Assembly: GCA_041480885.1 (NCBI GenBank)
Contig: JBGPAT010000001.1
Coordinates: 1 to 31,530 of the forward strand
Reading direction: 5' to 3'
Length of the DNA stretch: 31,530 nt
From: Anaerolineae bacterium
Lineage (GTDB): Bacteria; Chloroflexota; Anaerolineae; Anaerolineales; Villigracilaceae
Shown here in pieces: positions 16,386-31,530 of this stretch (its first letter is position 1; each line of letters starts with the position of its first letter). The notes below the pieces were generated by a model. The model was not told the origin of the DNA. It did not search any database and saw nothing but the letters and a program-made list of their open reading frames with translations. Position numbers and translations under genes: made by a program.

Positions 16386-17007
16386 CCACGCCGTGGTTCG
16401 TTCGGGGCTCAGGATGCTGCTCAGTTCGGAAAGCGACGTCGAGATTGTGGGTGAGGCCAGCACTGCGCGGGAGGCCATCGAGATTGCGGACGCGGTCAGG
16501 CCGGATGTAGTTCTGATGGACATCGGCTTGCCGGATCTTTCCGGGATCGACGCCACGCGGGAAATCAAGAAGCGCTTCCCCGACGTGGCCGTTGTTGCCC
16601 TGACTATTCACGAGGACGAGGAGTATTTTTTCAAGATGCTGGAAGCCGGCGCCTCCGGCTACGTGCCAAAACGCGCCGCGCCAGAAGAGCTCCTGACCGC
16701 CGTACGCGCTGCGGCTACTGGCGAGGTCTACCTCTATCCATCGCTGGCGAAGCTTCTGGTGACAGACTACTTGAATCAAGAGCACCCCGGAGAGGAAAAA
16801 ATCAACCTCGATGGGTTGACCGCTCGTGAACGTGAGGTGCTGACATATCTGGCAGAAGGCACCAGCAACGATGAGATAGCAGTCTCGCTGGTGATTAGTC
16901 CGAAGACGGTTGAGCGACACCGGGAAAACATCATGCGTAAGCTGAACCTGCACTCGAGGTCGGAATTGGTGCGATATGCGATCAGGAGGGGAATAATCCA
17001 AGCATAG
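16357..17007 (+). CDS. NarL/LuxR-family response regulator
   Basis: LLLVDDHAVVR, VLMDIGLP, and LTAREREVL..SPKTVERHRENIMRKL HTH. AGGAGG RBS precedes 16357. Overlaps the kinase 3' end. Confidence 0.94.
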   Translation: MATRLLLVDDHAVVRSGLRMLLSSESDVEIVGEASTAREAIEIADAVRPDVVLMDIGLPDLSGIDATREIKKRFPDVAVVALTIHEDEEYFFKMLEAGASGYVPKRAAPEELLTAVRAAATGEVYLYPSLAKLLVTDYLNQEHPGEEKINLDGLTAREREVLTYLAEGTSNDEIAVSLVISPKTVERHRENIMRKLNLHSRSELVRYAIRRGIIQA

Positions 17008-17477: not shown

Positions 17478-17600
17478 ATGGACGCCCTTCAGGTACTCCT
17501 CACGCTCATCTTTGTGCGGGTGATCCTCCCGATTTGCCTGCTGCTCACGATCGGCGAATGGGCTAAGAGTCGCGGCCGCCAAGCTCATTATCGAATGTGA
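17478..17600 (+). CDS. 40-aa small membrane protein (not in ORF track)
   Basis: AAGGAG RBS, then MDALQVLLTLIFVRVILPICLLLTIGEWAKSRGRQAHYRM*. One TM helix, first gene of the + strand cytochrome run. Confidence 0.65.
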   Translation: MDALQVLLTLIFVRVILPICLLLTIGEWAKSRGRQAHYRM

Positions 17601-17608
17601 GGTGGATC

Positions 17609-17935
17609 ATGAATGACGCCGCTGGTTTGCTCGCCGTTCTGGCCGGCTTTGTGGTGCGCCTCTCCATACCGATTCTGGTAACAGCGCTGGCCGTTCACTT
17701 CCTGCGCAAGCTGGACGCGTACTGGCAAACCGAGGCAACAGCTGGGCCACTGAATGTTGAGAAGCCGCAGTGTTGGAAAGTGCAAGGCTGCTCGCCTGCG
17801 AAACGAAAGGGCTGCCTCGGCTTCAAATCACCCTTGCCGTGTTGGCAGGCCCTTCGCCAGCCGAATGGCTACCTCACTCCGCAGTGCCTGGCCTGCAGAG
17901 TCTTTCTTCAGGCGCCGTTGCCGGCGCACGCATAG
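17609..17935 (+). CDS. Membrane-anchored Cys-rich protein (two-CW-like)
   Basis: GAGGTG RBS, N-terminal TM helix, then CW-x4-C-x7-C-x8-CW-x13-C-x2-C (6 Cys). Confidence 0.7.
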   Translation: MNDAAGLLAVLAGFVVRLSIPILVTALAVHFLRKLDAYWQTEATAGPLNVEKPQCWKVQGCSPAKRKGCLGFKSPLPCWQALRQPNGYLTPQCLACRVFLQAPLPAHA

Positions 17936-17960
17936 TTGAATCGTTTGAGGAGGTGCAAGG

Positions 17961-18935
17961 ATGTCTTCTCGTGTCTACCGCCTTTTGATTGCGCTGATGT
18001 TTGCTCTGTTCGCGGCAGGCGCAACGTTACTGCTGGCGCGAGCGCAGGAGGGAACACCCGTCTCCCCCACGCAACCAGCCGCGCACGCGCCCGCCTGCGT
18101 CGCGTGCCACACCGAGTTCGCCACCGAATGGCAGAAAGGCCCGCACGGCCAAGCAGTGAGCGATCCAAAATTCGTCGATGAGTGGACTAAGCAGGGCAAG
18201 CCCGGTGCCTGTCTGGTTTGTCACGTCACAAACTATGATCCGGCAACGGGTACCTGGCTGGAGGATGGGGTCGCCTGCGAGGCGTGCCATGGGCCGCTGA
18301 AGGACGGCCATCCAAAGACCCCAATGCCCGTGGACCGCTCGCCCGAGCTTTGCGGCCGCTGTCACAGCGATGCGCGCTTCGGCTGGCAGGCATGGCAGGC
18401 AAGCGCGCACTTCCAGCGCGGTATGAACTGCACCACTTGTCATGATCCGCACAGTGCATCGCTGAAGGTCGTCGCCCCGCGGGACGGGAGTGCACAATAC
18501 AGCGACGCCTCGCAGTTGTGTGTCAACTGCCATAAAGACGTGAGCATGAACTTCCCTTACTCACAGCACCACCAGCGCGGTGTCTCATGCATAGACTGCC
18601 ACGTAACCCATACCGTGACGACCTCAGCCACGGCGCACACGATTCCGGGTCATTCCTTCAAGGCAAACCTTGATAGTTGCAACAAATGCCACTCTGATCA
18701 AATGCACACTGCCGCTTCGGCGTCATCCGCAAGCCAGCCGCAGACCTCCACGACTTCTGTCCCCGTGCAAATTGAGCAAGCCGGATTGGCAGCCCAGCCC
18801 AGCCCTGTTAGTCCCATCGGCTTCGCGGGTCTGGCTGCCCTAATCGGCCTTGCCGGTGGCATGGTGATGGCCCCTTGGCTTGAGAAGTGGTACGCTCGCC
18901 TGGTGAAGCACAATCGCGGAGGCGGGGATGACTAA
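17961..18935 (+). CDS. Octaheme cytochrome c, signal peptide and C-terminal membrane anchor
   Basis: 8 CXXCH motifs (CVACH, CLVCH, CEACH, CGRCH, CTTCH, CVNCH, CIDCH, CNKCH) and a C-terminal hydrophobic helix. Confidence 0.92.
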   Translation: MSSRVYRLLIALMFALFAAGATLLLARAQEGTPVSPTQPAAHAPACVACHTEFATEWQKGPHGQAVSDPKFVDEWTKQGKPGACLVCHVTNYDPATGTWLEDGVACEACHGPLKDGHPKTPMPVDRSPELCGRCHSDARFGWQAWQASAHFQRGMNCTTCHDPHSASLKVVAPRDGSAQYSDASQLCVNCHKDVSMNFPYSQHHQRGVSCIDCHVTHTVTTSATAHTIPGHSFKANLDSCNKCHSDQMHTAASASSASQPQTSTTSVPVQIEQAGLAAQPSPVSPIGFAGLAALIGLAGGMVMAPWLEKWYARLVKHNRGGGDD

Positions 18936-19698
18936 GACCGTGAGCCGTCGCGATTTTCTTAAGATCAGCGCCGCTGGAGCGACCGCCGCAGCCGCGGCGC
19001 AGGTCCTGAAGCAGGGCGCGGCGTCCGAAACCGCTGCGGAGGGTCCTCGTCAGTGGGTCATGGTCATCGATCAATCAAAGTGCATCGGGTGCGGCTACTG
19101 CACCCTCGCCTGCCAAGCTCACAATGATGTCAATCCCACCATAGAATGGAACCGCGTGACGCCGCTCGGGCAGCTGCAGGGAAAAGATATCTTCTTGCCG
19201 CGGCCCTGCATGCAATGCGCGAAGGCCCCTTGCGTTGATGTCTGCCCGGTCAAGGCATCTTATTACAGACCGGATGGCATCGTGATGATGGACTATGACC
19301 GGTGCATCGGCTGCAGGTATTGCGAAGTGGCCTGCCCGTATCAAGCCCGATCCTTCAACTGGAAAGCCTTCGATGGTCCGAACCCGGTTGTCCCTAAATG
19401 GGGACAACCTGAGGTAGCGCGCCGCCCGCGCGGCGTCGTGGAAAAATGTGCGTTCTGCTACCAGCGCATTGACCGCGGTCTCGCACAAGGTTTGCAGCCG
19501 GGTGTCGACCCGGATGCGACGCCGGCTTGTGTGGTTGCGTGCCCGACCGGTGCCCGCGTTTTCGGGGACATCAATGACCCGCAGTCCGATGTATCAACCA
19601 TGCTGAAGGACAACTTCAACTATCGTCTGCGCGACAATTTGGGCACGGGTGCGCGAGTCTACTACTTGCCTGCCGATGCAGCGGAGATGGAGGGATAA
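18928..19698 (+). CDS. Tat-exported 4x[4Fe-4S] protein (NrfC/DsrO/HybA/QrcC family)
   Basis: SRRDFLK Tat motif; CIGCGYC..C, CMQC..PC..VCP, CIGCRYC..ACP, CAFC..CVVACP. Confidence 0.93.
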   Translation: MTKTVSRRDFLKISAAGATAAAAAQVLKQGAASETAAEGPRQWVMVIDQSKCIGCGYCTLACQAHNDVNPTIEWNRVTPLGQLQGKDIFLPRPCMQCAKAPCVDVCPVKASYYRPDGIVMMDYDRCIGCRYCEVACPYQARSFNWKAFDGPNPVVPKWGQPEVARRPRGVVEKCAFCYQRIDRGLAQGLQPGVDPDATPACVVACPTGARVFGDINDPQSDVSTMLKDNFNYRLRDNLGTGARVYYLPADAAEMEG

Positions 19699-20963
19699 TG
19701 TTGAAGCGCCTGCGAGTCCAACTTCCTCCTCTAAAGGTTACACCGTGGGGCGTGTGGCTGGGGATTCTCGGCCTGGTGCTGTTGGCGGCCTCGACTGCCG
19801 GGGTCCTGGTCTTCTGGACCGGCCTGTGGATCACGAATCTCACCGATCTCGTGCCTTGGGGCCTGTGGATTACGATTGATCTCTCATCCATCGCATTGAG
19901 CGCGGGTGCGTTCACCCTCTGCGCAGCCGTATATTTGATCGGCCTTGAGCGCTACCAGCCCATCGCTCGCACTGCCACGTTTGTCGGCTTGATCGGATAC
20001 ACCATGGCAATGCTGTCGTTGCTGCTCGATATCGGCCGCCCGGATCGCTTTTGGCATGCGCTGGTCTACTGGAATGACCGCTCACTCCTTTGGGAAGTGA
20101 CCATGTGCGTCATGCTCTACCTGACGGTCTTAGTGTTCGAGTCACTCCCCATCTTCGCCGGGCTCGAGTGGTTCAAACAGCGCTTGCCAAAGTTGGCCAG
20201 GAAGATGAGCGGCACGCACCACTATGCGCCCTATCTTGCAATTGCGGGCCTCGCTCTTTCCTCCCTGCACCAGTCTTCGCTGGGAGCAATATACGGCGTG
20301 ATCAAAGCACGTCCCCTGTGGTACAAGCCTGAGATGGCCATCCTGTTCATGTTCTCGGCCATCGTTGGTGGCATTTCGCTGACCCTGTTCGCCTCCATGC
20401 TCTCAGCGCGCCTCACTCCCAAGGCGAAGATCAACGATGCCCTGATTGAGAGGGTGGCACACTTTGTCGCCTGGGCGCTGGTCGGGTACTTCTACTTCAG
20501 GTTTTGGGATGCGCTGGCTCAGCATTACACCTATGAGCCCGGGCGCACCGAGGGAATGGAATTGCTCACTGGAGGTCCGCTCTCGTTCAACTTTTGGGTG
20601 CTTGAAATGCTCCTTGGCACCCTCATTCCCATGATCATGCTTCTGACGCCATATACCCGCCGCCATCCATTCTGGCGCATGGTCGCCCTCGGCCTGGTTG
20701 TGGTGGGCGTGGTTGCCTACCGTTGGGACACGAATCTCTCGGGGCTCATGGTGGTTCTGTCGTATCTTCCGGGCGAGCAAGCGATCGCCTATGCTTCATA
20801 TTGGCCATCACTCGTAGAGCTGGTGGCGGGATCAGGCATCATCGCCTACGGGATGCTTGCCTTCTCGCTCGGCGTCCGTTACCTCAGGGTGGTGGATCAC
20901 CGCTACCTTGCAGACGAAGCTGAGGCCGTCAAGATCGAGTCGCCTGCCGCCGTGCGCGCCTAG
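19698..20963 (+). CDS. NrfD/PsrC-family integral membrane quinone-interacting subunit (HybB/QrcD/DsrP-like)
   Basis: PWGLWI..DL..IALSAGAF, LLLDIGRPDRFW, SLLWEV and LHQSSLG motifs; about 10 TM helices. Confidence 0.92.
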   Translation: MLKRLRVQLPPLKVTPWGVWLGILGLVLLAASTAGVLVFWTGLWITNLTDLVPWGLWITIDLSSIALSAGAFTLCAAVYLIGLERYQPIARTATFVGLIGYTMAMLSLLLDIGRPDRFWHALVYWNDRSLLWEVTMCVMLYLTVLVFESLPIFAGLEWFKQRLPKLARKMSGTHHYAPYLAIAGLALSSLHQSSLGAIYGVIKARPLWYKPEMAILFMFSAIVGGISLTLFASMLSARLTPKAKINDALIERVAHFVAWALVGYFYFRFWDALAQHYTYEPGRTEGMELLTGGPLSFNFWVLEMLLGTLIPMIMLLTPYTRRHPFWRMVALGLVVVGVVAYRWDTNLSGLMVVLSYLPGEQAIAYASYWPSLVELVAGSGIIAYGMLAFSLGVRYLRVVDHRYLADEAEAVKIESPAAVRA

Positions 20964-20977
20964 ATTAGGCCTGCCAG

Positions 20978-21016
20978 AAAAGATGAGCCGGTCCTTACTG
21001 GACCGGCTCATCTTTT
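20978..21016. terminator. Bidirectional intrinsic terminator between convergent cytochrome operons
   Basis: AAAAGATGAGCCGGTCC-TTACT-GGACCGGCTCATCTTTT, with A/T tracts on both sides. Confidence 0.88.
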
Positions 21017-21072
21017 GATTTGAGTACGTCTATGTCGGGTTCAGATCCAATGGATAGCCTGGGCTTGCTACC

Positions 21073-22770
21073 TCACTTCTCGGGCGCGCCAGCCGTTATC
21101 CATTGTCCAACCAGGTCAAGCTCTGCCGCCGAGAGATTCGCAAAGTGCTGAGAACTCTGGATCCTGATCAGTAAACTGTTCGTCGCGTCACCAGGCGCGA
21201 TCACGGCGCGGTCCTTGCCACCTTTCATCGTGCCCGCATAGGTGGTCAGGTCCATGCCCCCGGCGAGCGTGGTGGGATTGTGGCACATGGTGCACTTGGC
21301 GGCGAAAACCGGCCCAATGTTCGCGTCATATGTCGGATTGCCCACCACGGCGGCCGGCGTCGGCAGGGGAGCCGGCGTGGGAACCTGTGCCTGCAGAATG
21401 GACCGCAGAACAGGCGCATCAAATCCCGCATATGTAAAGACACTTCCATGACATGCGCTGTTTGAGCAGAATGACGTGTTGCTGGTTCCGCCAGCATCGG
21501 CCATGGTGTGGCAGGCGGAGCAGGTGGCGTCGATGCTCTTGTTATGCAGGCTGATCCAATTGGCGTTGCGATGAGACTCGGGCTCAGGCCCGCGGCTGAT
21601 TTCGATCTTGGTCACAAAGTCCTGGGAGCCGGCCACCACAGGCACCGAATGACATAGATTGCATTCGAGGCGAATCGCCTGCTGGCTCGCGTCGAGATGC
21701 TTTCCGTCGTGGCAGCGGAAGCAGCCCGCGGAATTGATATGGCCGACATTCGAAGGATGTGTGTTCCAATTGTCCTTCTGGTCCAGGAATGCGGAGTCGG
21801 AATAGATCTGCTGTAGCGCAGCAATGGCCTGCGTGATCTTGGCGGTATTTGCGCCGTAGAAGCCCGAATAGTGAGTCTGATAATAGTTGTCCAAACTCGC
21901 GATACCCGCCTGGGCCTCAGCCTGAGTGCTGTAATCACGCCTCAGCGCTTCGACTCCCAGCTTTCGGATGTCCGGAATATCCTTTGAGATGCCTCCCAGG
22001 GATAGTGCTTCATCCACCGACTCCTCAGGCGTGTAGATGTGGTGCGTAATGCGGTTGTGACAAGTAATGCAGTCCATCTCCTTAAGCTTGGCTGGATCTA
22101 CCTTGGCAGGATCGAAACCAGACTGGACATCCACGTAGTCTGTCTTGGAACCATCATCGTTGACCACCTGCACAAAGGGAATGGTCTGTTCCAGAGTATC
22201 GGTGGGATAGTAGTAGACCTGGTTGACGATGTGCCAGTGGATGCCGAGGCCCAGCCCTGGCCGCTTGGCGCCTCCGCCCGTCTTCAGCACAAGGTAGGTA
22301 CTGTAGGGTGTGTTCTGCTGATCAGGCTGGAAATGGGAGATCACTCGCAGACTGTCGTCTGAGAATTTCTCGGGCGAATGGCATTTCTCGCAGGTCTCAC
22401 GCGCCGGACGCATGTTCTGGATATATATCGGATACTCGTACGTGCTGAAGGCTGTCGCCAGGATGTGCCTCACATCACCAGCCTTGCGGAAGATCTGGTT
22501 ACCAATGAACTCACGTCCAATGTGGCAGTCCACACAAGCTATGCGCGAGTGGGGCGAGACTTGATAGGCTGCAAACTCCGGCGGCATCGTATGGCATGTC
22601 GTGCCGCAGAATGACGGGGAGTTGGTGTAGTCCCACGCATACGCGCCGCCCACCAGAAGTGACAGGGTCAGAAGCCCCAGCACCGCATACGGCAGGATCA
22701 GGAGCCACCGAGGAGAACTGCGAGGCGGAAAGAAGAAGTGGCGGATGGCAGATCGGACTCGTGCTAGCAT
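21073..22770 (-). CDS. NapC/NirT-type membrane multiheme cytochrome c (ImcH-like) with tethered C-terminal monoheme domain
   Basis: N-terminal TM helix, NSPSFCGTTCHTM..Y..SPH..CVDCH, 7 CXXCH plus one CX3CH and one CX4CH, PTPAP linker before the last heme. Confidence 0.88.
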   Translation of the reverse strand: MLARVRSAIRHFFFPPRSSPRWLLILPYAVLGLLTLSLLVGGAYAWDYTNSPSFCGTTCHTMPPEFAAYQVSPHSRIACVDCHIGREFIGNQIFRKAGDVRHILATAFSTYEYPIYIQNMRPARETCEKCHSPEKFSDDSLRVISHFQPDQQNTPYSTYLVLKTGGGAKRPGLGLGIHWHIVNQVYYYPTDTLEQTIPFVQVVNDDGSKTDYVDVQSGFDPAKVDPAKLKEMDCITCHNRITHHIYTPEESVDEALSLGGISKDIPDIRKLGVEALRRDYSTQAEAQAGIASLDNYYQTHYSGFYGANTAKITQAIAALQQIYSDSAFLDQKDNWNTHPSNVGHINSAGCFRCHDGKHLDASQQAIRLECNLCHSVPVVAGSQDFVTKIEISRGPEPESHRNANWISLHNKSIDATCSACHTMADAGGTSNTSFCSNSACHGSVFTYAGFDAPVLRSILQAQVPTPAPLPTPAAVVGNPTYDANIGPVFAAKCTMCHNPTTLAGGMDLTTYAGTMKGGKDRAVIAPGDATNSLLIRIQSSQHFANLSAAELDLVGQWITAGAPEK

Positions 22771-22784
22771 CGATATTCACCTCA

Positions 22785-24914
22785 TTAGTTGTCTTGCGCG
22801 CCGGAAGCAATCCAGTTCAGAATCACCTGGAGATCCGCTTGAGGCAGACTACCCTGGGGTGGCATGGTCTGGCCGTTCGTTCCCTGAAGCATCTGGGCCA
22901 ACGGACTCTTTTCTACGTTCCCGGCAATGACCACGGGGCCGCCCTTTCCGCCGGCCATCACCGTGCTGTAAGAAGAGGCATCCCAGCCACCCAGCTTCGT
23001 GCCGGAGTTGTGGCACACTTGGCAGTTTGCCTTAAGAATCGGGAGCACCTGACCAGAAAAACTTGATGCAGAGGGTGTAGCAGCGGGAGTCGCAGTGCCC
23101 TCCGGCGCGCTCGCGATTGGTTTCAGTGTTCGAATGTACTGCACTAGTTGTTGAAGCTGGCCGGCACTTAGGAGGTCCCCCCACGCAATCATGGGAGTCG
23201 CTTCCCGGCCTTTGTCAATGACATTGAGCAGAGACTGATCGTCATAGCGATTCTGAAAATCCGCCGTGTTGAAGGCGGGACCAATACCACCTTCGCCGTT
23301 GGCGCCATGGCACCTGGCACACACATTTGCAAAAACCTGGGAACCGCTGAGTGCTGCACGACCAGCTGCCACCTCGGCTGGCAGATTGACCGGCGGATTG
23401 GCTTCCCAACTTCGGATAAAGGCCACCAGAGCATCAATCTGGTCATCGCTCAGAGGTCCGCCATTGGCCGAGCCAAAGGGCGACATCCCAAAATTGGGCT
23501 GGCCTTGTGAAATGATACTCCGCAAAGTAAGGTCATCTCGCGTCTTGAGAAACTCAGCCGAACTGATCGGAACGATCGTCTGGCTCGGATTGGCCGGATT
23601 GGGACCGCCTTCGCCAAATTGCCCATGGCAAACCGCGCAATTGCTCACAAATAGCTGAGCACCCTCTTCCGCACTCTGCCCTTTGCTCGCTGTTAGAGTG
23701 TAGTTCACTAGTGCATCCAGCTGCTCGGGCGTCAGTATTTTTCCCCACACCGGCATCGTCACATGGGCGCCGCCGCTCGCGATGATCTTGCGGGCACTCT
23801 CGAGATCAGGAGCGGTTGGCACCGTATTGCCGTGACAGACGCTGCAGCGCTGTCCAAACAGGGTCTTGCCGGCTGGATTGGAGGCGGGATCGGTCACATA
23901 GGCGGCCAGAGTATCGAGGTCAGCCTGGCTCAAGGTACCCTGCCACGCCGGCATTGAAAGGTGCTGTCCGCCTTTGCTGATGATGTCACGCAGCTGACTT
24001 TCGGTGCCGGTGAACGTGACGCCAAACCCGTGGCAACCCGAGCAGTTGACCTCGAACAGCCGCTGACCGTCGGGTGCGGCGAGGAAATTCAGCACCGCAT
24101 TGCGCTGTGCGTCCGTCAGAGTCTGTTTCCAAGCAGGCGTGCTCTGTTTCTGATGCGGGGGGTAATTTGGCCCTTCCTCAAATACCCGTTGCAGCTCCTG
24201 CGGATTCCCAGAGGCCTGTACGAGCGTCTTATGGCACGCTCCACACTCCTGGGTGTAGACCGCACTACCATTTGGTGACGTAATGAAGCCAGCCAGGGCA
24301 TCAATTTCGTCGGTGCTGAGATCGCCTCCCCAAGCAGGCATGCCTTCGTGTTTGCCCTGAGCGATGAGTTGATGGAGATCGGTGCCAGCTGGCACGACAA
24401 TTCCGGGTCCGTGGCAATTGGCGCAGTTCTTGGCGTAGAGGGCAGCGGCTTGATCAACGGGCGCTGCCACTTGAGGCGGCGGCGACTCTCGCACGGAGAG
24501 TATGGTCAATGTGGCGATTCCCCCCACGACCAATAAAGCCAACACGCTCGCAATGGGCCGGTCGAGGAAATGGCGCCTTGTACTTCTATCGATGAACGGC
24601 AGGGCGAACAGCAGGAGAATCAACAATCCAGGAATTACCATGACGCCGACAACTTCCAGCTTGCCGGGGAAGTACTTCAGAAGCTGAAATAGGAAGAGGA
24701 AGTACCATTCCGGGCGAGGAGTGTACGTCGCGTCATTTGGATCTGCCCTTGCCTCCGTCGGGACACCCAGGAAGTACGCCAGTGCCACTAGGACCAGGAA
24801 GATCACCAGCGACACAACCACGTCCTTGAAGATGATGTCGGGAAAGAACGGGACTCCTTTTTCCTTGGCTTTCTTGTAGCGTTCGAGATATTCCTTCTTC
24901 TCTTTCTCGTTCAT
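22785..24914 (-). CDS. Cytochrome b6 subunit IV (PetD/QcrC-like) fused to seven monoheme c domains
   Basis: PFFPD..KD, PEWYFLF Qo motif, 3 TM helices, then CANCH, CGACH, CSGCH, CSVCH, CAVCH, CARCH, CQVCH. Confidence 0.92.
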   Translation of the reverse strand: MNEKEKKEYLERYKKAKEKGVPFFPDIIFKDVVVSLVIFLVLVALAYFLGVPTEARADPNDATYTPRPEWYFLFLFQLLKYFPGKLEVVGVMVIPGLLILLLFALPFIDRSTRRHFLDRPIASVLALLVVGGIATLTILSVRESPPPQVAAPVDQAAALYAKNCANCHGPGIVVPAGTDLHQLIAQGKHEGMPAWGGDLSTDEIDALAGFITSPNGSAVYTQECGACHKTLVQASGNPQELQRVFEEGPNYPPHQKQSTPAWKQTLTDAQRNAVLNFLAAPDGQRLFEVNCSGCHGFGVTFTGTESQLRDIISKGGQHLSMPAWQGTLSQADLDTLAAYVTDPASNPAGKTLFGQRCSVCHGNTVPTAPDLESARKIIASGGAHVTMPVWGKILTPEQLDALVNYTLTASKGQSAEEGAQLFVSNCAVCHGQFGEGGPNPANPSQTIVPISSAEFLKTRDDLTLRSIISQGQPNFGMSPFGSANGGPLSDDQIDALVAFIRSWEANPPVNLPAEVAAGRAALSGSQVFANVCARCHGANGEGGIGPAFNTADFQNRYDDQSLLNVIDKGREATPMIAWGDLLSAGQLQQLVQYIRTLKPIASAPEGTATPAATPSASSFSGQVLPILKANCQVCHNSGTKLGGWDASSYSTVMAGGKGGPVVIAGNVEKSPLAQMLQGTNGQTMPPQGSLPQADLQVILNWIASGAQDN

Positions 24915-25576
24915 CGCTGCTCATTCCTCTCCGGCAGAGCCGAAATGCCAATACGGATCACCAGGTAGAGGTGCGTCCCCACGAGGGCCGCCAGAGCTGC
25001 GGGCAATACCCAAACGTGCGTGCCAAAAAAGCGAGCCAGCGTCACCGCGGACAGATCAGTGCCGCCACGGGCGATCCGCAGGAGCCAATCACCTACCAGC
25101 GGAGCCACGCCAGCAATTCGAGTGCCAACGGTCGTAGCCCAGTACGCTTTCTGATCCCACGGCAGCAAATAGCCGGTAAAACCGAAACCAATCACTACCA
25201 GGAACAGCAGCACGCCCGTGATCCATGTGGCCTCGCGCGGATATTTGTACGCGCCATAAAAAAAGACTCGCAGAAGATGCAGAACCACCAACACGATCAA
25301 TGCGCTCGCACCCCAGTGGTGCAGGCCTCGGATGAGCCAGCCCGCCGGCAGTTGGGTCGTGATGTAGACGACGCTGTCATAGGCATGGTCAGGTGTCGGC
25401 ACGTAGTAAAGTGTGAGCAAGATTCCGGTCACCGCCTGAATGGTGGCGACGAAGAGCGTGGCGCTGCCCAACGTGTATAGCCAGTTTACGTGAGGCACCT
25501 TGCGCAGGAATATGGCCTCCCACACGCTGCGCCAGCTAAAGCGCTCTTCCATCCAATCGGCGAATTTTGCCAGCAT
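24911..25576 (-). CDS. qcrB: Cytochrome b6 (N-terminal, 4-TM) subunit of Rieske/cyt b complex
   Basis: QAVTGILL.LYYVP, His pairs H-x13-H and H-x14-H, GFTGYLLPWDQKAYWA. Confidence 0.94.
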   Translation of the reverse strand: MLAKFADWMEERFSWRSVWEAIFLRKVPHVNWLYTLGSATLFVATIQAVTGILLTLYYVPTPDHAYDSVVYITTQLPAGWLIRGLHHWGASALIVLVVLHLLRVFFYGAYKYPREATWITGVLLFLVVIGFGFTGYLLPWDQKAYWATTVGTRIAGVAPLVGDWLLRIARGGTDLSAVTLARFFGTHVWVLPAALAALVGTHLYLVIRIGISALPERNEQR

Positions 25577-25577
25577 A

Positions 25578-26057
25578 TCAACCTCGCTTTATGTAGAGAA
25601 TCCCGGCCGTCACTTTGCTCTGGAACCGGTCAAGAGGTCGAGGCGGTGGCCCAGATACGACGGTCCCATCCTTCGCAAACACGCCGTTATGACAAGGACA
25701 ATGGTACTTGCCATCGTCGGCGATCCAGCGCACTCTGCATCCCAGGTGGGTGCAAATGTTCGAAATGACCACAAAATCCTGTCCGTTGTCAGTCAAGACG
25801 TAAGCCGACACTTCCTCTTCGGTCTTGATCCAGCCCGTCTGTGTCTGAACCGTGGTCTTGAAAAGCGTGGGATTCCCCATCTCAACCTTGCTGATTGCTC
25901 CCAGCCGGATCCATGCATCAGTAGCCTGCGTCAGGGCCGGGCCGATAACGTATGCAATCGCTGGCAGCCCGATCGCGGCGCCGATGAGCCCGCCGATGCT
26001 GAAGATCGCCGCTTTCATGAAGTCCCGACGGCCAAGCGGCGGCGTTTTGTCTTTCAT
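25578..26057 (-). CDS. qcrA: Rieske [2Fe-2S] protein, Tat signal-anchor
   Basis: GRRDFMK, CTHLGC and CPCHNG boxes, GPPPRPL. GGAGG RBS precedes ATG 26057. Confidence 0.94.
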   Translation of the reverse strand: MKDKTPPLGRRDFMKAAIFSIGGLIGAAIGLPAIAYVIGPALTQATDAWIRLGAISKVEMGNPTLFKTTVQTQTGWIKTEEEVSAYVLTDNGQDFVVISNICTHLGCRVRWIADDGKYHCPCHNGVFAKDGTVVSGPPPRPLDRFQSKVTAGILYIKRG

Positions 26058-26082
26058 GGTTGACCTCCAGTGTTCAGTACCT

Positions 26083-27300
26083 TCACTTTTCGAGAGCTCC
26101 CGCATCGATCCAGGCTTTGACCAGCGCAAGCTCTTCAGGGGACAACTGGCCGGGATGACCGCCGCTGGTCTGGACCTGGAATAGTTTGCTGTTAGCCGCA
26201 TCACTTGGGACAATGACGGGGCCATCCGTTGCGCCTTTCAGGGCGTCTGCATAGCTGCTCAGGTTCAGCCCGTTGGTTGCTAGAGTTGTGCCATGACACA
26301 TCCCGCACCTCGACGCGAAGATCGGAGCCACCTCTCCCCAAGAGATGGGCGAGCTGGTTCCGGCCGCAGCCTGCGCCGTGGGCACCGACGTCGCAGCAGG
26401 TACCGCCGTCGGCGTCGGCGGCAGCGCAGTGGGTGTCTGCGGAACATAGATGGGAACAGTCGTGGCAATCTCCGGCGGGACTGTTGTGATGGCGGTCTGC
26501 TCGCCGTTCACGAATCCATAGACGGCAAAGAGCAGGACCAGCGCGACTATGGCCGCAATTGGGTAATAGACATGCTGGCGTTTTCGAAGCGCGGCCGGCT
26601 CTGGCAGGCGGTCCGCAAAGCCCGCTTTGATGTCTGCCAGCTCCAGCGGATGCTCATGGAGCATTTCTTCTTCGCTCGCGCGGCCTGTCCACATGGCCTT
26701 GTTGAATCGCCTGAGATGAACCCCATACATGTGCCAGACGATGATGGCCAGGACGGCCAAAACTGCTTCCGCGCCATGGGCCGTCTTGGCGGCCGGGATG
26801 ATGTCGCCTGGCAGGAGCCGGACAGTGGTAAGAGGGTTCCACATCATGAATCCCGTTAGACCCATGATCAGGATGCCCCAAACCAGGGCCCAGTATTCCG
26901 CCTTCTCTTCGAAACCATAACGTCCCAGCTGTGGACGGGATTTGACGAGACCGATGTTGTATCTGAAGGCGGACCACGCATCAAGGACGTCCTGCACGCC
27001 TGGCAACATCGCCAGCGGCCGGCGCAGGACAAAGATCTTGTATCCAAGATTCACGATGTGATAGACGGCCACCAGCATGAGCAGGATAGCCGCGACATGA
27101 TGGGTGGTCCGGACGCGCTCAATCCCACCAAAGGAACGAACCATGAATACCGAAACGGAACTCAGCGCGTATTTCTGCACCAGACCGGTAAGCGCCAGGG
27201 TTGTGAAGGACAGCAGCATCACGAGATGCTGAATGCGATCTGACAGAGTGAATCGAACGTAGTTCCGCCGCGGCGCGGGAGCAGCCGTCTTCTTTGCCAT
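26083..27300 (-). CDS. FdnI/HydC-type diheme cytochrome b with tethered C-terminal monoheme c domain
   Basis: RF..SDRIQH, RTTHH, GRYGFEEKAEYWAL.WG, AHG.EA..A...WH; PTPT linker, then CGMCH. Confidence 0.9.
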   Translation of the reverse strand: MAKKTAAPAPRRNYVRFTLSDRIQHLVMLLSFTTLALTGLVQKYALSSVSVFMVRSFGGIERVRTTHHVAAILLMLVAVYHIVNLGYKIFVLRRPLAMLPGVQDVLDAWSAFRYNIGLVKSRPQLGRYGFEEKAEYWALVWGILIMGLTGFMMWNPLTTVRLLPGDIIPAAKTAHGAEAVLAVLAIIVWHMYGVHLRRFNKAMWTGRASEEEMLHEHPLELADIKAGFADRLPEPAALRKRQHVYYPIAAIVALVLLFAVYGFVNGEQTAITTVPPEIATTVPIYVPQTPTALPPTPTAVPAATSVPTAQAAAGTSSPISWGEVAPIFASRCGMCHGTTLATNGLNLSSYADALKGATDGPVIVPSDAANSKLFQVQTSGGHPGQLSPEELALVKAWIDAGALEK

Positions 27301-28463
27301 TAGTGCTGCGCTCCCTTCCGCGCCTGGATCATGCGTCTGATAATGTCGGATACAACGAAGATCAGCATGCCGCCGATGACAGTCGGGATGAAGATCTTGT
27401 AGAACAGGCCAACGTAGTACACCAGCGGAGACCTCGTGGGGCTAGCGATGTAGTGGCTCATCCATGCGTCGGTGAAGCTCGTGGTGGTCACGTCGGGATG
27501 GCAGCGTTGGCATTTCGTCAGCAGATTCTGCTTGATGGCGATGCCAGTGGCAGGATTATCCACCTTGGAAATGTTGTGGACACCATGACAATCGGTACAC
27601 ACCGGCTTGTTAGTCGGCGTGTCCGGCGAGACCTGCTCAAAAAGCGTGACCGTGGTGCCGTGGAAGTCGGCCACGTAGGTGTTGAGGACCTGCGTTGTGA
27701 TGCCATACTTGCCCATGATCTGCGGATTGGTATGGCACTTTGCGCACAACAGAGGTGTGTCATTACGGAAGCGAGCCGTGGTCGGGTTCTGGATATTATG
27801 AACGCCGTGGCAGTCAATGCAGGTCGGCACATCCAGGTTGCCCTCGGTGGTGAGCGCCGCGCCATGGACGCTGTTCTTGTAGGTATTGTAGATCGTGCTG
27901 TGACAGCGCGCACACGTGAGTGGAATTTGCAGGCGCGCCTGGGGCAGGAGCTCCCCAGTCTGTTTATCGGTCATGCGGATCTGTTGGTGCGGGTTATGAC
28001 AATCGGTGCAGACCGCGGCGTTGTTGTTCCCGCCTGCCAGCGCCGTCTGGTGAACGCTGTCCAACACCTTGCTGTACTGTTCCGCATGGCAGTTCTTGCA
28101 GCTGGTGTAGAGCTGAAGCGTCACCTGTCGAAGGGAATCAGCTTTGAAATCGGTGTGCGGAAACGTAGTGATGTTCGTATGGCAGTCGGCACACGCGATG
28201 TTCTCCTGATCGTGCACGCTGTGGCCGAATAGACCAGGATCAATATACAGTGAGAGTATTTCGCCGCTGGGAAGGGTTTTCGTCAGGCCCTGCTGACTAT
28301 GACAACCCAGGCAAAAGTCATTGGAAGGTTTGTCCTGAACGCGTGTTGCGAACCCCCCCACGGCGCTTGCGGGCGTCGCGATGACGATCGCGGCAAGCAG
28401 AAGCAAGCCCAACGCCGAGACAAGCAAGACTGCTCTTAGTCGGTTGTTCGGCCGTGCGGTCAT
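27300..28463 (-). CDS. Nonaheme cytochrome c with signal peptide and C-terminal TM helix
   Basis: 9 CXXCH motifs. The stop overlaps the start of the cytochrome b gene (TAATG). AGGAG RBS. Confidence 0.92.
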   Translation of the reverse strand: MTARPNNRLRAVLLVSALGLLLLAAIVIATPASAVGGFATRVQDKPSNDFCLGCHSQQGLTKTLPSGEILSLYIDPGLFGHSVHDQENIACADCHTNITTFPHTDFKADSLRQVTLQLYTSCKNCHAEQYSKVLDSVHQTALAGGNNNAAVCTDCHNPHQQIRMTDKQTGELLPQARLQIPLTCARCHSTIYNTYKNSVHGAALTTEGNLDVPTCIDCHGVHNIQNPTTARFRNDTPLLCAKCHTNPQIMGKYGITTQVLNTYVADFHGTTVTLFEQVSPDTPTNKPVCTDCHGVHNISKVDNPATGIAIKQNLLTKCQRCHPDVTTTSFTDAWMSHYIASPTRSPLVYYVGLFYKIFIPTVIGGMLIFVVSDIIRRMIQARKGAQH

Positions 28464-28609
28464 TGCCTTCTCCTGCGGATGACGGGCATGTCTTGAATAG
28501 GACGCAAAATGCGGGCAGTGGTTGATGGCACGTTGCCTACAAGTCTAATCTGCATGTTAGGGCACAAATAGTGCGGAATATCACGAAATTGATATGATTA
28601 GTCTTCAGA

Positions 28610-28656
28610 GAATGAATGAGATGGCGGGCGCGTTGCGCCCGCCATCTCATACATTC
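28610..28656. terminator. Long GC-rich hairpin downstream of decaheme gene (terminator or mRNA-stabilising stem)
   Basis: ATGAGATGGCGGGCGC-GTT-GCGCCCGCCATCTCAT, extendable by GAATG/CATTC across one mismatch. No clean U-tract. Confidence 0.65.
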
Positions 28657-28672
28657 CCCGATCTAGGTTCGT

Positions 28673-30901
28673 CTATGGCCTCTTGAGCTTCGAAACATCC
28701 CCGCCGAGATCCTTGATCGAGTCATACAGGAACTGCATGACATATTGCGGATTGTGGGCAAAGGCGCCTGGGTCCTTGATGGAGTACTGGTAGTTATAGG
28801 CCGCCTCCAGCAGGCGAGGCGTCCAGGCGTTGTAGCCGATGTTGCCCGTGTCATTCGTATCTGGCTTGCCATCCTTGTTAGCATCCACAAAGAAGTACGG
28901 ATAGGTCGCGGCGTCGTACACAATTGCCGTGCCTGCCTTCTTCTCTGCATAGGCTTGGACAGCTGCATACAGCGCCGTGCGATAGCTGTCGATCTCTGCA
29001 TAGATGCCTTCGGTGACGTCGCCGTTGCCGTTCCAGTCCGTGGTATCGGTGGTCGCACGGATCTTATCCAGGTCAGCGGTGCCGGTGACATTGGTGTGGC
29101 AAGCCTTGCAGGCATCAACTTTCACCGTAAGCTGATGGACATCATGGCAGTCCGTGCACTTGTTAAGCGGATGCACCGTGTTCTGGCCGAGATACTTCTG
29201 ATTGGCGTATTGATAGGCACCCTTTGCCGCATCCCCAAACAGTGTCGCACCGGCGGCAAAGTAGTGGACGTTCTTGAAGCTGATCTTCGGATCAGCCGTG
29301 TCGAGGGGCTTGCCAGCCAGATAGTTATTCACGGTGACTGTGGACTCGCGGCCCTGGTGGCACTCGATGCACAGGTTCGCATCCACGGGCTTGAGCGTGC
29401 CGTCCGCGTTCTTCTCGGTGCTGAAAGTCAGCGAAACGCCTGAGGGGAACGGGACGCTCGTGACCGCATAGCGATTCGGCCAGTTGGCTTCGTCATGGCA
29501 GGTCGAGCACATGAAACCATTGGCAGCGGGCTGCCCAACCACCCCGGTGATCTGAACCCCGGACTTGGTCACGACCTCGGTGCCGCTATTCGCAATATAC
29601 TGCGGCAGACCGGTGGCGCTGTGGCACTTGGCGCATGCTGCATCAACGGTGCCAGTGGAATCCCAGTGGCGGAACGGTTCAGTGTCGCCCGCGAAGTGAC
29701 CCGCATCGTCCCGAGCCAGCTTGCTCATATCGACCGGCTTGGAAATCTTGCCGTTGAGGTCATCAATAGAGTCGTGGAGCAACTCAATGATGTACTTCGC
29801 GTTGTGAGCGAATGCGCCCGGATCCTTGGCAGACACCTGATAGTTGTAGGCAGCCTTCAGCAGACGCGCGGTCCACTTGCCGTAGGGGACAGGATTACCC
29901 TTGGCATCCTTGGCCACGGTCCCGTCGCTGGCTGCAGAAAGGAAGTAGGGATAGGTCGCCCCATCATAGACGACGGGTGCGCCCCCAACTTCAGTGGCAT
30001 ACGCCTGAATGGACGAATACAGGATATCCTGCAGGCCCTTCAGCTCGTAGTAGATGCCTTCCTTGGTGTCGCCATTGCCGTTGTAATCCGCAAGCGAACC
30101 GTTTTCGCGGTTGTTTTTCAGATCATCAACGGTTTTGACGCCCTGGTGGCACTGCGCGCACTGGTCCACGCGCACCTTGGTGGCGTGCTGGTCATGGCAG
30201 GCGATGCAGGTATCGAACTCCGGTACATGCCGGAACTTGGGATCGTAGGACTTGCCATCGTACTCATACCCCATTTGAGCCTGCGATCCGTACAGAGTCG
30301 CACCGGCCGCAAAGTAGTGGACATTGCGGAAGCCGAAGTTCACGGGCTTGCCGCTGGAATCCGTCATCGGCGCCACCACGGCATCGACGTCAGTGACCTT
30401 GAAGTCGCTGATCTGCTTGTCAACACTGACCTTGGACTCACGCCCCTGATGACAGCTCATGCAGCGCGCCTCACCTTCCTCGGAAGTCTGCACGACTTTT
30501 CCCGAGGGGAAGGTGACCGAGTTCAAAGCGATTGCGGCCGGGTTGTGGCAGGTGTCGCAGTTGAAGGTGCCGGCGGGAGCTTTCACGTCCGTGCTGGTCT
30601 TCCCGGTCGAGGCAAATTCCTGAAAGCCAGCCGAGGTATGGCATTTGGCGCAAGTCGCCGGAACTACGGCAGGCGTATCGCCATTCCAATGCGTGAAAGG
30701 CACAGCATTGGCATCCGCATGGCCGGAAGCCAGGAAGGCGTCCTTGAACGGGACGACGAGCGTCAGCGCGGGGGCCGCGGTGGTGGGGGCCGTCGTGGTG
30801 CCGCTGGTCGCCGGCGTAGCAGCGGTTCCCCCGCAGGCTGCCAGCGCGACAGCAGCTACGAGCATCACTCCTAGAAGAACGAGTACTTTCCTAAGGGACA
30901 T
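28673..30901 (-). CDS. Decaheme cytochrome c lipoprotein built from two tandem pentaheme modules
   Basis: Lipobox LAA-C after a hydrophobic signal (AAGGAG RBS precedes ATG 30901), 10 CXXCH motifs, duplicated NVHYFAAGATL and AAYNY..DPGAFAHN motifs. Confidence 0.92.
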   Translation of the reverse strand: MSLRKVLVLLGVMLVAAVALAACGGTAATPATSGTTTAPTTAAPALTLVVPFKDAFLASGHADANAVPFTHWNGDTPAVVPATCAKCHTSAGFQEFASTGKTSTDVKAPAGTFNCDTCHNPAAIALNSVTFPSGKVVQTSEEGEARCMSCHQGRESKVSVDKQISDFKVTDVDAVVAPMTDSSGKPVNFGFRNVHYFAAGATLYGSQAQMGYEYDGKSYDPKFRHVPEFDTCIACHDQHATKVRVDQCAQCHQGVKTVDDLKNNRENGSLADYNGNGDTKEGIYYELKGLQDILYSSIQAYATEVGGAPVVYDGATYPYFLSAASDGTVAKDAKGNPVPYGKWTARLLKAAYNYQVSAKDPGAFAHNAKYIIELLHDSIDDLNGKISKPVDMSKLARDDAGHFAGDTEPFRHWDSTGTVDAACAKCHSATGLPQYIANSGTEVVTKSGVQITGVVGQPAANGFMCSTCHDEANWPNRYAVTSVPFPSGVSLTFSTEKNADGTLKPVDANLCIECHQGRESTVTVNNYLAGKPLDTADPKISFKNVHYFAAGATLFGDAAKGAYQYANQKYLGQNTVHPLNKCTDCHDVHQLTVKVDACKACHTNVTGTADLDKIRATTDTTDWNGNGDVTEGIYAEIDSYRTALYAAVQAYAEKKAGTAIVYDAATYPYFFVDANKDGKPDTNDTGNIGYNAWTPRLLEAAYNYQYSIKDPGAFAHNPQYVMQFLYDSIKDLGGDVSKLKRP

Positions 30902-31018: not shown

Positions 31019-31047
31019 ATTCTACATAAATGTATGATTAATCACAA
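31019..31047 (-). promoter_or_regulatory. Candidate sigma70 promoter for the decaheme operon
   Basis: On the - strand, TTGTGA-N17-TAGAAT (plus-strand coordinates 31042-31047 and 31019-31024). Confidence 0.5.
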
Positions 31048-31239: not shown

Positions 31240-31530
31240 GTGAGCGAATCTCTGTTTCTCGTGTACTTCCTTTACGGCCTGTCGTTCTTTGCCATGGGAT
31301 TGGCTGTTCTGCTGGAGACAGCCCGCTCTCCTTCCATCGCGGCTGTCCCGAGCCTGCGATTCCTCGCCGCCTTTGGCCTGATCCACGGTACCCACGAGTG
31401 GCTTGAGTCCTATGTGATGCAGGCGCAGTCCTTGGGAACCCAAATACCATTTTGGCTGCCGGGCTTGCGGCTGGTGTTCCTGTTCGTCTCCTTTGTGAGT
31501 CTATTCCTATATGGGTACTCTGCCGTGCGG
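31240..31530 (+). CDS. N-terminal membrane sensor domain paralogous to the 14886 kinase (3'-truncated, not in ORF track)
   Basis: GTG start, MSESLFLVYFLYGLSFFAMGLAVLLETARS..LRFLAAFGLIHGTHEWLE; aligns with YFFYGLAFFSMGLLVAMEGGRS..LRPLAGFGLVHATHEWIE. Confidence 0.85.
   Translation, partial: MSESLFLVYFLYGLSFFAMGLAVLLETARSPSIAAVPSLRFLAAFGLIHGTHEWLESYVMQAQSLGTQIPFWLPGLRLVFLFVSFVSLFLYGYSAVR

Follow-up and report, generated by a model that had tools for sequence, protein, structure and literature searches.

The window analysed here is an entire contig, C1 (JBGPAT010000001.1, 31,530 bp), of a metagenome-assembled genome (MAG) from an Anaerolineae bacterium. It contains a cluster of multiheme cytochrome genes at positions 17478–30901 (~13.4 kb). 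We consider the chances slightly better than even that this cluster encodes a modular, membrane-tethered multiheme electron conduit for extracellular electron transfer (EET). Its core, made up of the decaheme cytochrome K, the nonaheme cytochrome J and the cytochrome b protein I, looks like a single-membrane version of the outward electron machinery of Geobacter and Thermincola. The parts have ImcH, CbcL/CbcBA and OcwA as their closest characterized analogues, all of which act in outward transfer.

In a single-membrane cell, such a conduit would join the menaquinone pool to redox partners beyond the cytoplasmic membrane, most likely to acceptors or donors in the extracellular space (Fe/Mn minerals, humics or partner cells, for example). 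In the proposed scheme, parallel entry modules would pass electrons to a tethered heme chain and on to K. I would exchange electrons with menaquinol, and J would dock onto I by its C-terminal helix to form a split CbcL/CbcBA-like unit. K, lipid-anchored on a flexible linker and with its catalytic pocket apparently lost, would be the distal end. E would usually provide a second entry point. Two more would have been added in this genome, namely a Rieske/b6 complex with F, and an NrfD-type module consisting of a small open reading frame (ORF), A, B, C and D. We infer this electron path, as well as the exposure of K beyond the wall and the operation of the entry modules at different acceptor potentials.

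The cluster consists of two convergent, densely packed operons. The plus-strand operon has the order 40-aa small ORF, A, B, C and D, with gaps of no more than 25 nt or overlaps between the genes. The minus-strand operon is transcribed in the order K, J, I, H, G, F and E; the genes from J to E (J-I-H-G-F-E) are also separated by at most 25 nt or overlap, and K lies 209 nt upstream of J. The conserved small ORF begins at position 17478, and the 742-aa lipoprotein form of K has its start codon at position 30901, so that the boundaries given in an earlier reading of the bare sequence (hereafter the original prediction) were exact. The same is true of its count of 42 CXXCH motifs and two variants in six proteins: B has 8, E 7, F 7, I 1, J 9 and K 10 motifs, and E also carries a CX3CH motif (residue 55) and a CX4CH motif (residue 435). 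A six-frame count gave 44 CXXCH motifs within 17478–30901 and 1 in the 17.4 kb to the left, an enrichment far beyond chance.

Pfam and NCBIfam searches confirmed that four quinone-interacting modules are present, as had been claimed. These are D (NrfD-type), E (ImcH/NapC-type), H-G-F (Rieske/b6) and I (FdnI-type cytochrome b). The same searches gave no match to molybdopterin, NiFe, heme-copper or porin families inside the cluster, and a motif count detected no CXXCK in the cluster proteins. The earlier statement that neither a catalytic reductase nor a porin lies inside agrees with these results.

The decaheme cytochrome K

K is encoded on the minus strand at positions 28673–30901. Its database-called form starts with MSLRK at position 30901, and the lipobox Cys23 is kept in 79% of the aligned homologues. 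A promoter-like site at 31047–31019 agrees with a shorter start of K; it comes from a promoter/terminator scan in which sites were no more frequent than in shuffled sequences. An AlphaFold model of K was calculated from 34 sequences (pLDDT 88.9, pTM 0.82). In the model, a disordered Thr/Ala/Pro linker (residues 23–46) is followed by two similar modules.

The best PDB match of the model in Foldseek was OcwA (6i5b; probability 0.99, E 0.046), and NrfA chains came next. In VIA-align, K was superimposed on NrfA (2rdz_A) with a Z-score of 12.6 over 248 residues and an rmsd of 4.2. The NrfA-like C-terminal module of OcwA (6i5b_B, residues 264–525) gave a Z-score of 11.9 over 225 residues with 22% identity. 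Octaheme nitrite reductase scored 11 and HAO about 6. The N-terminal half of K is a second NrfA-like module, in which the invariants of the repeat are duplicated. By these fold comparisons, K is a tandem of two NrfA-fold pentaheme modules and not an MtrC/OmcA-type protein. An MtrC/OmcA-like fold, with a staggered cross and beta-barrel flanks, was considered and rejected: OmcA (4lmh) reached a TM of 0.06 and an E of 4.2, and it was absent from the VIA-align list of matches with Z ≥ 2. Pfam reported weak matches of K to Mtrc-MtrF_II-IV. A search of PDB-chain sequences with K alone or with module 1 alone returned nothing significant, PF02335 gave no match to K, and only the K-family profile (A1) reached NrfA chains (E 1e-5).

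The two K modules were aligned with NrfA of E. coli K-12 using MAFFT; the identity is ~20% and the heme motifs served as anchors. All five heme motifs of each module align one to one with those of NrfA. In both modules, Lys126 of NrfA is changed to His, the Arg106 segment is absent, His264 is unconserved, and Glu215/Tyr216 are replaced by a conserved QGRES. Canonical NrfA identity was consequently rejected for K, as the catalytic Lys, Arg, Tyr and His are missing and there is no CXXCK. Module 1 has five conserved His residues besides the five proximal ones. Module 2 has four invariant extra His residues and His577, which is present in this protein and in 32% of the aligned homologues. With ten candidate distal His residues for ten hemes, K would fit an electron-transfer protein better than an enzyme. 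The lipid-anchored decaheme of the original prediction is thus upheld, with a lipobox Cys, an NrfA/OcwA fold and none of the NrfA catalytic residues. A tandem of two pentaheme modules that lacks these residues is a new architecture in the NrfA superfamily.

An invariant D-x-x-G-x-G-D-x-x-E-G loop follows the fifth heme in each module of K (residues 272–282 and 622–631). The loop resembles a calcium-binding loop; NrfA enzymes bind calcium.

Among characterized proteins, OcwA of Thermincola potens (6I5B) and OmhA of Carboxydothermus ferrireducens share with K the NrfA-superfamily scaffold, the three-helix bundle and a single-membrane host. However, OcwA combines a c554-like tetraheme with one NrfA-like module, whereas K has two NrfA-like modules (5 + 5 hemes). 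OcwA also has two open hemes, each under a His-His motif. No HH motif is found in K, which is lipid-anchored through a linker. The MtrCAB/OmcA system of Shewanella is similar in placing a lipoprotein decaheme at the distal end and a quinol dehydrogenase of the NapC/NirT class upstream. It differs in the fold of the decaheme, and the cluster described here has no porin, periplasmic MtrA or outer membrane.

The fold of K raises the question of whether the cluster is an Nrf/Mcc-like system for a soluble N or S compound. K would then be catalytic, acting on nitrite, NO, hydroxylamine, sulfite or tetrathionate, and would be fed by E and B-C-D. We regard this as unlikely. Each K module does have the pentaheme NrfA fold (with the Z-score of 12.6 and the profile match noted above), and the quinol dehydrogenases of the cluster are of the NrfH/NapC and NrfC/NrfD types. 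The N-terminal region of E scored 70.8 bits on the NrfH model and matched a solved NrfH (2j7a_C) with an E of 2e-8, and B, C and D are composed like NrfB, NrfC and NrfD. Furthermore, OcwA reduces nitrite in vitro without CXXCK, His577 is poorly kept in the K family, and one K homologue (P0015) is named a nitrite reductase subunit by one source. However, K is a tandem without CXXCK, and neither of its modules has a counterpart of Arg106, Tyr216 or His264 of NrfA. Ten candidate distal ligands are available for its ten hemes, and PF02335 does not match it. The score of E is below the NrfH cut-off (134 bits), and its motifs follow the ImcH spacing instead. D is nearer to QrcD/HmcC than to NrfD, for which it scored 42.8 bits against a cut-off of 347. 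To our knowledge, three to four parallel quinol modules serving one enzyme have no precedent in Nrf/Mcc systems. Fusions of K relatives with Ig-like stalks and with a quinol-oxidase cytochrome b, described below, also count against this reading.

Quinone modules and the PSCyt1 domain

J (27300–28463, minus strand) is a nonaheme cytochrome c assigned by Pfam and by its 9 CXXCH motifs. It has a signal peptide and a C-terminal transmembrane helix (residues 353–379), and its stop codon overlaps the start of I at position 27300. I (26083–27300, minus strand) is an FdnI/HydC-type dihaem cytochrome b (PF01292, Ni_hydr_CYTB/FdnI-type, 49.1 bits) with a tethered PSCyt1 domain (PF07635). It has five hydrophobic helices, and His25, His67/68, His175 and His190 reproduce the His pattern of FdnI. 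The fifth helix carries a Pro/Thr linker and the PSCyt1 domain to the outside.

In CbcL, nine c-hemes precede six helices (PMC6295460). J and I together have nine c-hemes, an FdnI/HydC-type dihaem cytochrome b and 1 + 5 transmembrane helices. On account of this correspondence, J+I appears to be CbcL cut after its first helix, with the unit divided over two genes. The separate c subunit held by a C-terminal helix recalls CbcBA. In a complex prediction, the J-I pair scored 0.77 and the best control 0.00, and the interface was formed by residues 345–377 of J and the helices of I. The mark of 0.77 was reached by 51 of 78 solved complexes and by 2 of 108 mismatched pairs. J and I are therefore predicted by the model to bind as one unit. 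The CbcL analogue proposed originally is supported by both the composition and the predicted binding.

E (21073–22770, minus strand) is a NapC/NirT-type cytochrome whose N-terminal region matches PF03264. A single N-terminal transmembrane helix is located at residues 23–41. The CX3CH motif stands beside the helix and six CXXCH motifs follow, so that the series is at residues 55, 79, 127, 234, 350, 370 and 417; the CX4CH motif (435) and a terminal tethered PSCyt1 monoheme domain come after them. The motifs of ImcH from G. sulfurreducens (GSU3259) are at 132, 156, 205, 311, 428, 448 and 486 (Zhong and Shi 2018, PMC6295460 Table S3). Those of the ImcH homologue ANT_RS10945 from Anaerolinea thermophila, a protein with a single helix, are at 52, 75, 124, 231, 347 and 367 (PMC6295460). 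The spacings are 24, 48, 107, 116, 20 and 47 in E; 24, 49, 106, 117, 20 and 38 in GSU3259; and 23, 49, 107, 116 and 20 in ANT_RS10945. Because these spacings are nearly identical, E can be placed by its motif pattern in the ImcH family, extended by the CX4CH motif and PSCyt1. The ImcH analogue claimed in the original prediction is reproduced in this pattern. E differs from Geobacter ImcH in its extra hemes and in having one helix instead of the three at the N-terminus; the A. thermophila homologue is the same published exception. ImcH is needed for the respiration of acceptors above about −0.1 V.

H, G and F form a Rieske/b6 complex. H (25578–26057, minus strand) is a Rieske [2Fe-2S] protein exported by the twin-arginine translocation (TAT) pathway (PF00355), with the motifs CTHLGC and CPCH; its start was set by 160-aa orthologues in two related loci (L001 and L002). 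G (24911–25576, minus strand) is a cytochrome b6-type subunit (PF00033, 170.6 bits). It scored 240 bits on the b6 model and 217.6 bits on the ExtP model of NCBIfam, both below the cut-off. His86/87, His100, His187 and His202 are candidate b-heme ligands. G has no Cys and thus no site for a covalent heme ci, which is found in b6f and Bacillus-type complexes. F (22785–24914, minus strand) is a PetD-like subunit IV (PF00032) fused to cytochromes c (PF13442 in 7 stretches, PF07635; 7 CXXCH motifs). Its three transmembrane helices are combined with six class-I cytochrome c domains and PSCyt1, which replace cytochrome c1 or f.

The split b6 and subunit IV and the TAT-exported Rieske protein resemble those of Bacillus QcrABC, actinobacterial QcrCAB and Geobacter Cbc6/ExtMNOPQ. 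The c-type cytochrome joined to subunit IV in F is a further likeness to Rieske/b complexes with a fused cytochrome. In contrast to the usual one or two hemes, F has six class-I domains and PSCyt1; G is without the ci Cys, and H-G-F is an optional insertion within a multiheme operon. In L001 (15299–18082), from a close relative, the b6 gene and the subunit IV/cytochrome c gene were annotated as one 927-aa protein, the result either of a fusion of full-length cytochrome b with a cytochrome c chain or of a sequencing frameshift.

The plus-strand operon encodes the NrfD-type module. B (17961–18935, plus strand) is an octaheme cytochrome c (8 CXXCH motifs) with a signal peptide and a C-terminal transmembrane anchor; Pfam gave c7, c554 and NrfB-like matches, and its helices are at residues 8–26 and 286–304. 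C (18928–19698, plus strand) is a TAT-exported ferredoxin of the NrfC/DsrO/QrcC type. It has a TAT signal, a Fer4_11 match and 16 Cys for four [4Fe-4S] clusters, and it scored 212 bits on DsrO, above the cut-off of 200, and 186 bits on QrcC. D (19698–20963, plus strand) is an NrfD-family quinone-interacting membrane subunit (PF03916, 115.7 bits). Of the NCBIfam models, QrcD (198.8 bits) and HmcC (152.4 bits) came closest to D, although neither score reaches the cut-off of its model.

A multiheme cytochrome, a TAT-exported four-cluster ferredoxin and an NrfD-like subunit are also combined in Qrc, Hmc/Nhc, Dsr(J)OP, alternative complex III and Geobacter Cbc4-type complexes. However, B-C-D has neither QrcB/ActB1-like nor cytoplasmic subunits, its octaheme is anchored at the C-terminus, and two small membrane proteins lead the operon. 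An assignment of B-C-D as Qrc or alternative complex III was rejected, since the window holds no molybdopterin-like subunit (QrcB/ActB1): PF00384 had no match in the window and eight matches on other contigs of the MAG.

The first of the two small proteins is the 40-aa ORF at the head of the operon (17478–17600, plus strand), which has a single helix. Full-length tblastn matches with 38–52% identity were found directly upstream of A in at least 10 relatives. The ORF probably encodes a genuine small membrane protein of this operon that has gone unannotated. The second, A (17597–17935, plus strand), is a 112-aa membrane-anchored protein with one transmembrane helix and six Cys. It had no match in Pfam or NCBIfam. 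In relatives, A is always upstream of B and accompanies B-C-D (35–57% identity). Its role may be that of a subunit that binds a metal or a cluster, or that of a sensor.

Within the MAG, PSCyt1 is confined to the C-termini of E, F and I, and its three copies share 32–46% identity. One tethered monoheme domain is thus attached to three unrelated quinol oxidoreductases. We read it as a common plug by which E, F and I connect to a shared cytochrome chain. Each of the six cytochromes in the cluster has a tether, be it a transmembrane helix, a lipobox or a fusion, as is expected in the absence of an outer membrane.

Conservation and genomic context

Forty-two related loci, each taken with 10 kb on either side of K, were compared. 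I was found in 30 of them, J in 29, E in 24, C/D in ~20, the kinase/regulator pair in 18–25, and G/H/F in 7–9. The full layout of the window is common to L001, L002 and L026. The loci L023–L028, from close relatives, contain K-J-I-E and D-C-B-A without a Rieske module; no F-type protein is present elsewhere in their genomes, only another subunit IV with 47–53% identity. Thermanaerothrix solaris 4228-RoL (L077), an isolate, has K-J-I alone, between glmS and a regulator with nuo genes. Because I, J and E are common and G/H/F are found in only 7–9 of the 42 loci, the conserved unit is K-J-I, usually with E, and the Rieske/b6 and NrfD modules are accessory. The four-module state is one maximal configuration. 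The four-module layout of the original prediction is thus not the conserved unit; the NrfD module is present in about half of the loci.

Close homologues of K (66–85% identical) come from MAGs named Anaerolineales, Anaerolineae or Chloroflexi. The family comprises 355 clusters (50% identity) matching with E values up to 1e-30, and relatives of K are found in at least 592 species genomes. In a sample taken evenly across the class, a member of the K family was found in 96 of 301 genomes, which represent 61 of 174 genera, and in each of the 8 genomes sampled from the family to which the MAG belongs. Ig-like (immunoglobulin-like) Big_1/Big_2 stalk domains stand ahead of the K modules in P0122, P0131 and P0166, and also in an AlphaFold DB match. 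P0125 is a direct fusion of an FdnI-type cytochrome b with a K-type decaheme, which links K-type modules to quinol-oxidising cytochrome b. K-type modules are also fused to a Ser/Thr kinase (P0124) and to a chemoreceptor (MCP, P0221). These two fusions suggest that the module is additionally used as an extracytoplasmic redox sensor.

The cluster is preceded by genes for a membrane sensor histidine kinase (HK1, 14886–16385, plus strand) and a NarL/LuxR-type response regulator (RR1, 16324–17007, plus strand). HK1 has HisKA_3 and HATPase_c domains (Pfam, NCBIfam) and an N-terminal membrane domain with an H-x-T-H-E-W motif; RR1 has Response_reg and GerE domains. RR1 is 72–82% identical in relatives with the A-B-C-D module, and HK1 is co-conserved beside the cluster. 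Farther to the left are a PD40 protein, hrcA-grpE-dnaK-dnaJ, glycosyltransferases, panB and panE. As the window is the whole contig, its right edge is the contig end. There it cuts a second membrane sensor kinase (HK2, 31240–31530, plus strand), identified by its likeness to HK1. HK2 shares 44% identity with the N-terminal part of HK1 (E 2e-19), and both have H-x-T-H-E-W in the membrane helix region. Two paralogous sensor kinases thus bracket the cluster, each with its own NarL-type regulator.

Contig C87 of the same genome starts with residues 226–525 of HK2 (C87:5–904), followed by the regulator RR2, and it appears to continue the window. After RR2, C87 (1–9012) encodes CcmE, CcmF, CcmH, a thiol-disulfide oxidoreductase, a zinc-ribbon protein, a ~610-aa cytochrome c and CcmA, and CcmC is at the start of another contig (C208:2–397). 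The large cytochrome c and the zinc-ribbon protein are unusual inside a Ccm operon. The same right-hand order (HK2, RR2, Ccm) was observed in L001, L002 and L024. A reductase encoded just beyond the right edge had been named as a finding that would speak against the conduit. No reductase was found there; a sensor kinase, a regulator and Ccm genes occupy that place in C87 and in the three related loci.

The MAG (2.97 Mb, 447 contigs, 59% G+C) is 84.5% complete, and no 16S rRNA gene was detected in the 2.97 Mb searched. Neither Omp85 nor LpxC was found in it, and Omp85 was not found in five 99–100% complete genomes of the same family either. This is in line with published opinion, cited in PMC7399161, that these bacteria have no Gram-negative envelope. 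The host cell is probably single-membrane, judging from these gene contents, which is consistent with the monoderm member of the Chloroflexota that had been supposed; to judge from the names given to its close relatives, the MAG belongs to the Anaerolineae. DNA of the window is found in sediment metagenomes of many studies.

Elsewhere, the MAG encodes two heme-copper oxidases, eight molybdopterin enzymes and two more NrfD proteins. It also has two more cytochrome b genes, one with a Rieske protein (C416) and one with an octaheme (C35). The cluster is therefore not the sole respiratory chain, which argues against a housekeeping complex III. In C35:2–2273 (L017), the cytochrome b (342 aa) is cut by the contig start and lies directly before the octaheme cytochrome c (416 aa). 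C251:3118–4647 (L019) encodes a nine-heme cytochrome that starts 1 nt from the contig end; its C-terminal part matches cytochrome c552 (PF02335) with 66 bits, and one TGA lies inside the match. In C170, a pentaheme ORF is located beside a weak molybdopterin-family match (798-aa frame), and the pair looks like ActA/ActB of alternative complex III.

These surroundings bear on another explanation, in which the cluster is an envelope-internal distribution hub or heme capacitor. It would take electrons from the quinol pool to oxidases or reductases encoded elsewhere and have no extracellular partner. All cytochromes of the cluster are held at the cytoplasmic membrane by tethers, and nothing that spans the wall was found among them; tethering of cytochromes c is common in single-membrane bacteria. 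Rieske/b complexes normally supply oxidases, and the two heme-copper oxidases and eight molybdopterin enzymes of this genome need donors. However, no oxidase or reductase subunit encoded elsewhere in the MAG carries PSCyt1, which is confined to the cluster. Outside the cluster, two further cytochrome b genes (one with its own Rieske protein) and the pair resembling alternative complex III are present. Moreover, K-J-I stands alone, without any oxidase, in T. solaris, and Rieske/b6 is dispensable in close relatives that have no F-type protein elsewhere. The Ig-like stalks on some K homologues also disfavor a purely internal role, and we consider such a hub quite improbable.

Direction of electron flow and biological meaning

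The same machine might also work mainly inward. The donor would then be extracellular Fe(II), reduced humics, a cathode or a syntrophic partner, and electrons would flow downhill through the class-I cytochromes to oxidases, uphill to quinones through the Rieske/b6, NrfD-type and cytochrome b modules, or both ways. Nothing in the sequence fixes the direction of flow. The two heme-copper oxidases of the genome and the six class-I cytochrome c domains of F, usually a high-potential type, would suit an inward route, and NrfD-type modules such as Qrc are quinone reductases. Ardenticatena maritima, a Chloroflexota isolate, performs both anodic and cathodic EET (PMC5808234). Its seven-heme, 74-kDa surface protein ARMA_0580 might be of the F type. 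On the other hand, ImcH, CbcL/CbcBA and OcwA all serve outward transfer, and K-J-I is also present in Thermanaerothrix, whose genus name refers to anaerobic growth. Neither a Cyc2-like protein nor any other known iron oxidase was seen in the window. A mainly inward function therefore seems to us unlikely.

Several observations weigh against the extracellular electron conduit that we favor. The surface exposure of K rests on the 24-residue linker and on analogy, and K is anchored to the cytoplasmic membrane. The lipobox, the disorder of this linker and the Ig-like stalks of relatives are the indications of a surface location. No wall-spanning, outside-wall or secreted component was predicted among the cluster proteins. 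A Rieske/b6 complex with class-I cytochromes is typical of high-potential chains leading to oxidases. The match of K to OcwA is weak (Foldseek E 0.046), and by Z-score OcwA ties with the periplasmic NrfA enzymes. OcwA itself has open hemes and can reduce nitrite, and the poor conservation of His577 makes a substrate-binding heme possible in the K family. The J-I complex score of 0.77 may partly reflect likeness to solved FdnI-type complexes. Furthermore, the likeness of J+I to CbcL is one of composition, and the heme spacing differs, being 25–49 in J and 23–43 in CbcL. Finally, no RNA run is among the sequencing runs listed with DNA of the window.

For two reasons the original prediction has to be narrowed. 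The conduit was called complete, which is an overstatement, since all of its cytochromes are bound to the cytoplasmic membrane by tethers and no part that spans the wall or is secreted was found. It was also called undescribed, and this holds in part. The multiheme cytochrome richness of Anaerolineae and their suspected EET role (PMC7399161), an ImcH homologue in A. thermophila (PMC6295460) and cbcB-cbcA fusions in Chloroflexi have already been published. In the open-access papers searched, however, we found no description of a K-J-I(-E) cluster, a tandem NrfA-fold decaheme, a shared PSCyt1 tether or the modular insertions.

Geobacter likewise has several quinol modules in parallel. Here, in contrast, the modules are gathered in one operon of a single-membrane cell without a porin-cytochrome partner, and a PSCyt1 domain on proteins such as E, F and I is not known from Geobacter. 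We put forward, as a tentative proposal that goes further than the conduit itself, that Anaerolineae have a modular EET system of their own, built around K-J-I as the conserved core. Up to four quinol oxidoreductases would plug via PSCyt1 into one NrfA-fold decaheme wire. These four, namely the Q-cycle Rieske/b6 complex, the ImcH-like E, the split CbcL-like unit and the NrfD-type module, would differ in energy yield. If this proposal is true, a single-membrane cell could match its energy conservation to the potential of minerals, humics and syntrophic partners.

Anaerolineae rank with the most abundant bacteria of sediments, aquifers, activated sludge and anaerobic digesters. An exchange of electrons between them and minerals, electrodes and methanogens has been suspected for a long time, on the basis of multiheme cytochrome counts only. 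The system proposed here, if real, would supply the long-sought molecular basis for the direct interspecies electron transfer suspected of Anaerolineae in sediments and digesters. A concrete conserved gene set has now been defined, and because its minimal form is present in the cultured T. solaris, the question can be tested directly. Current marker sets (Mtr, Omc and porin-cytochrome genes) miss the K-J-I cluster. If its function is confirmed, the cluster would serve as a metagenome marker for electron exchange by single-membrane bacteria.

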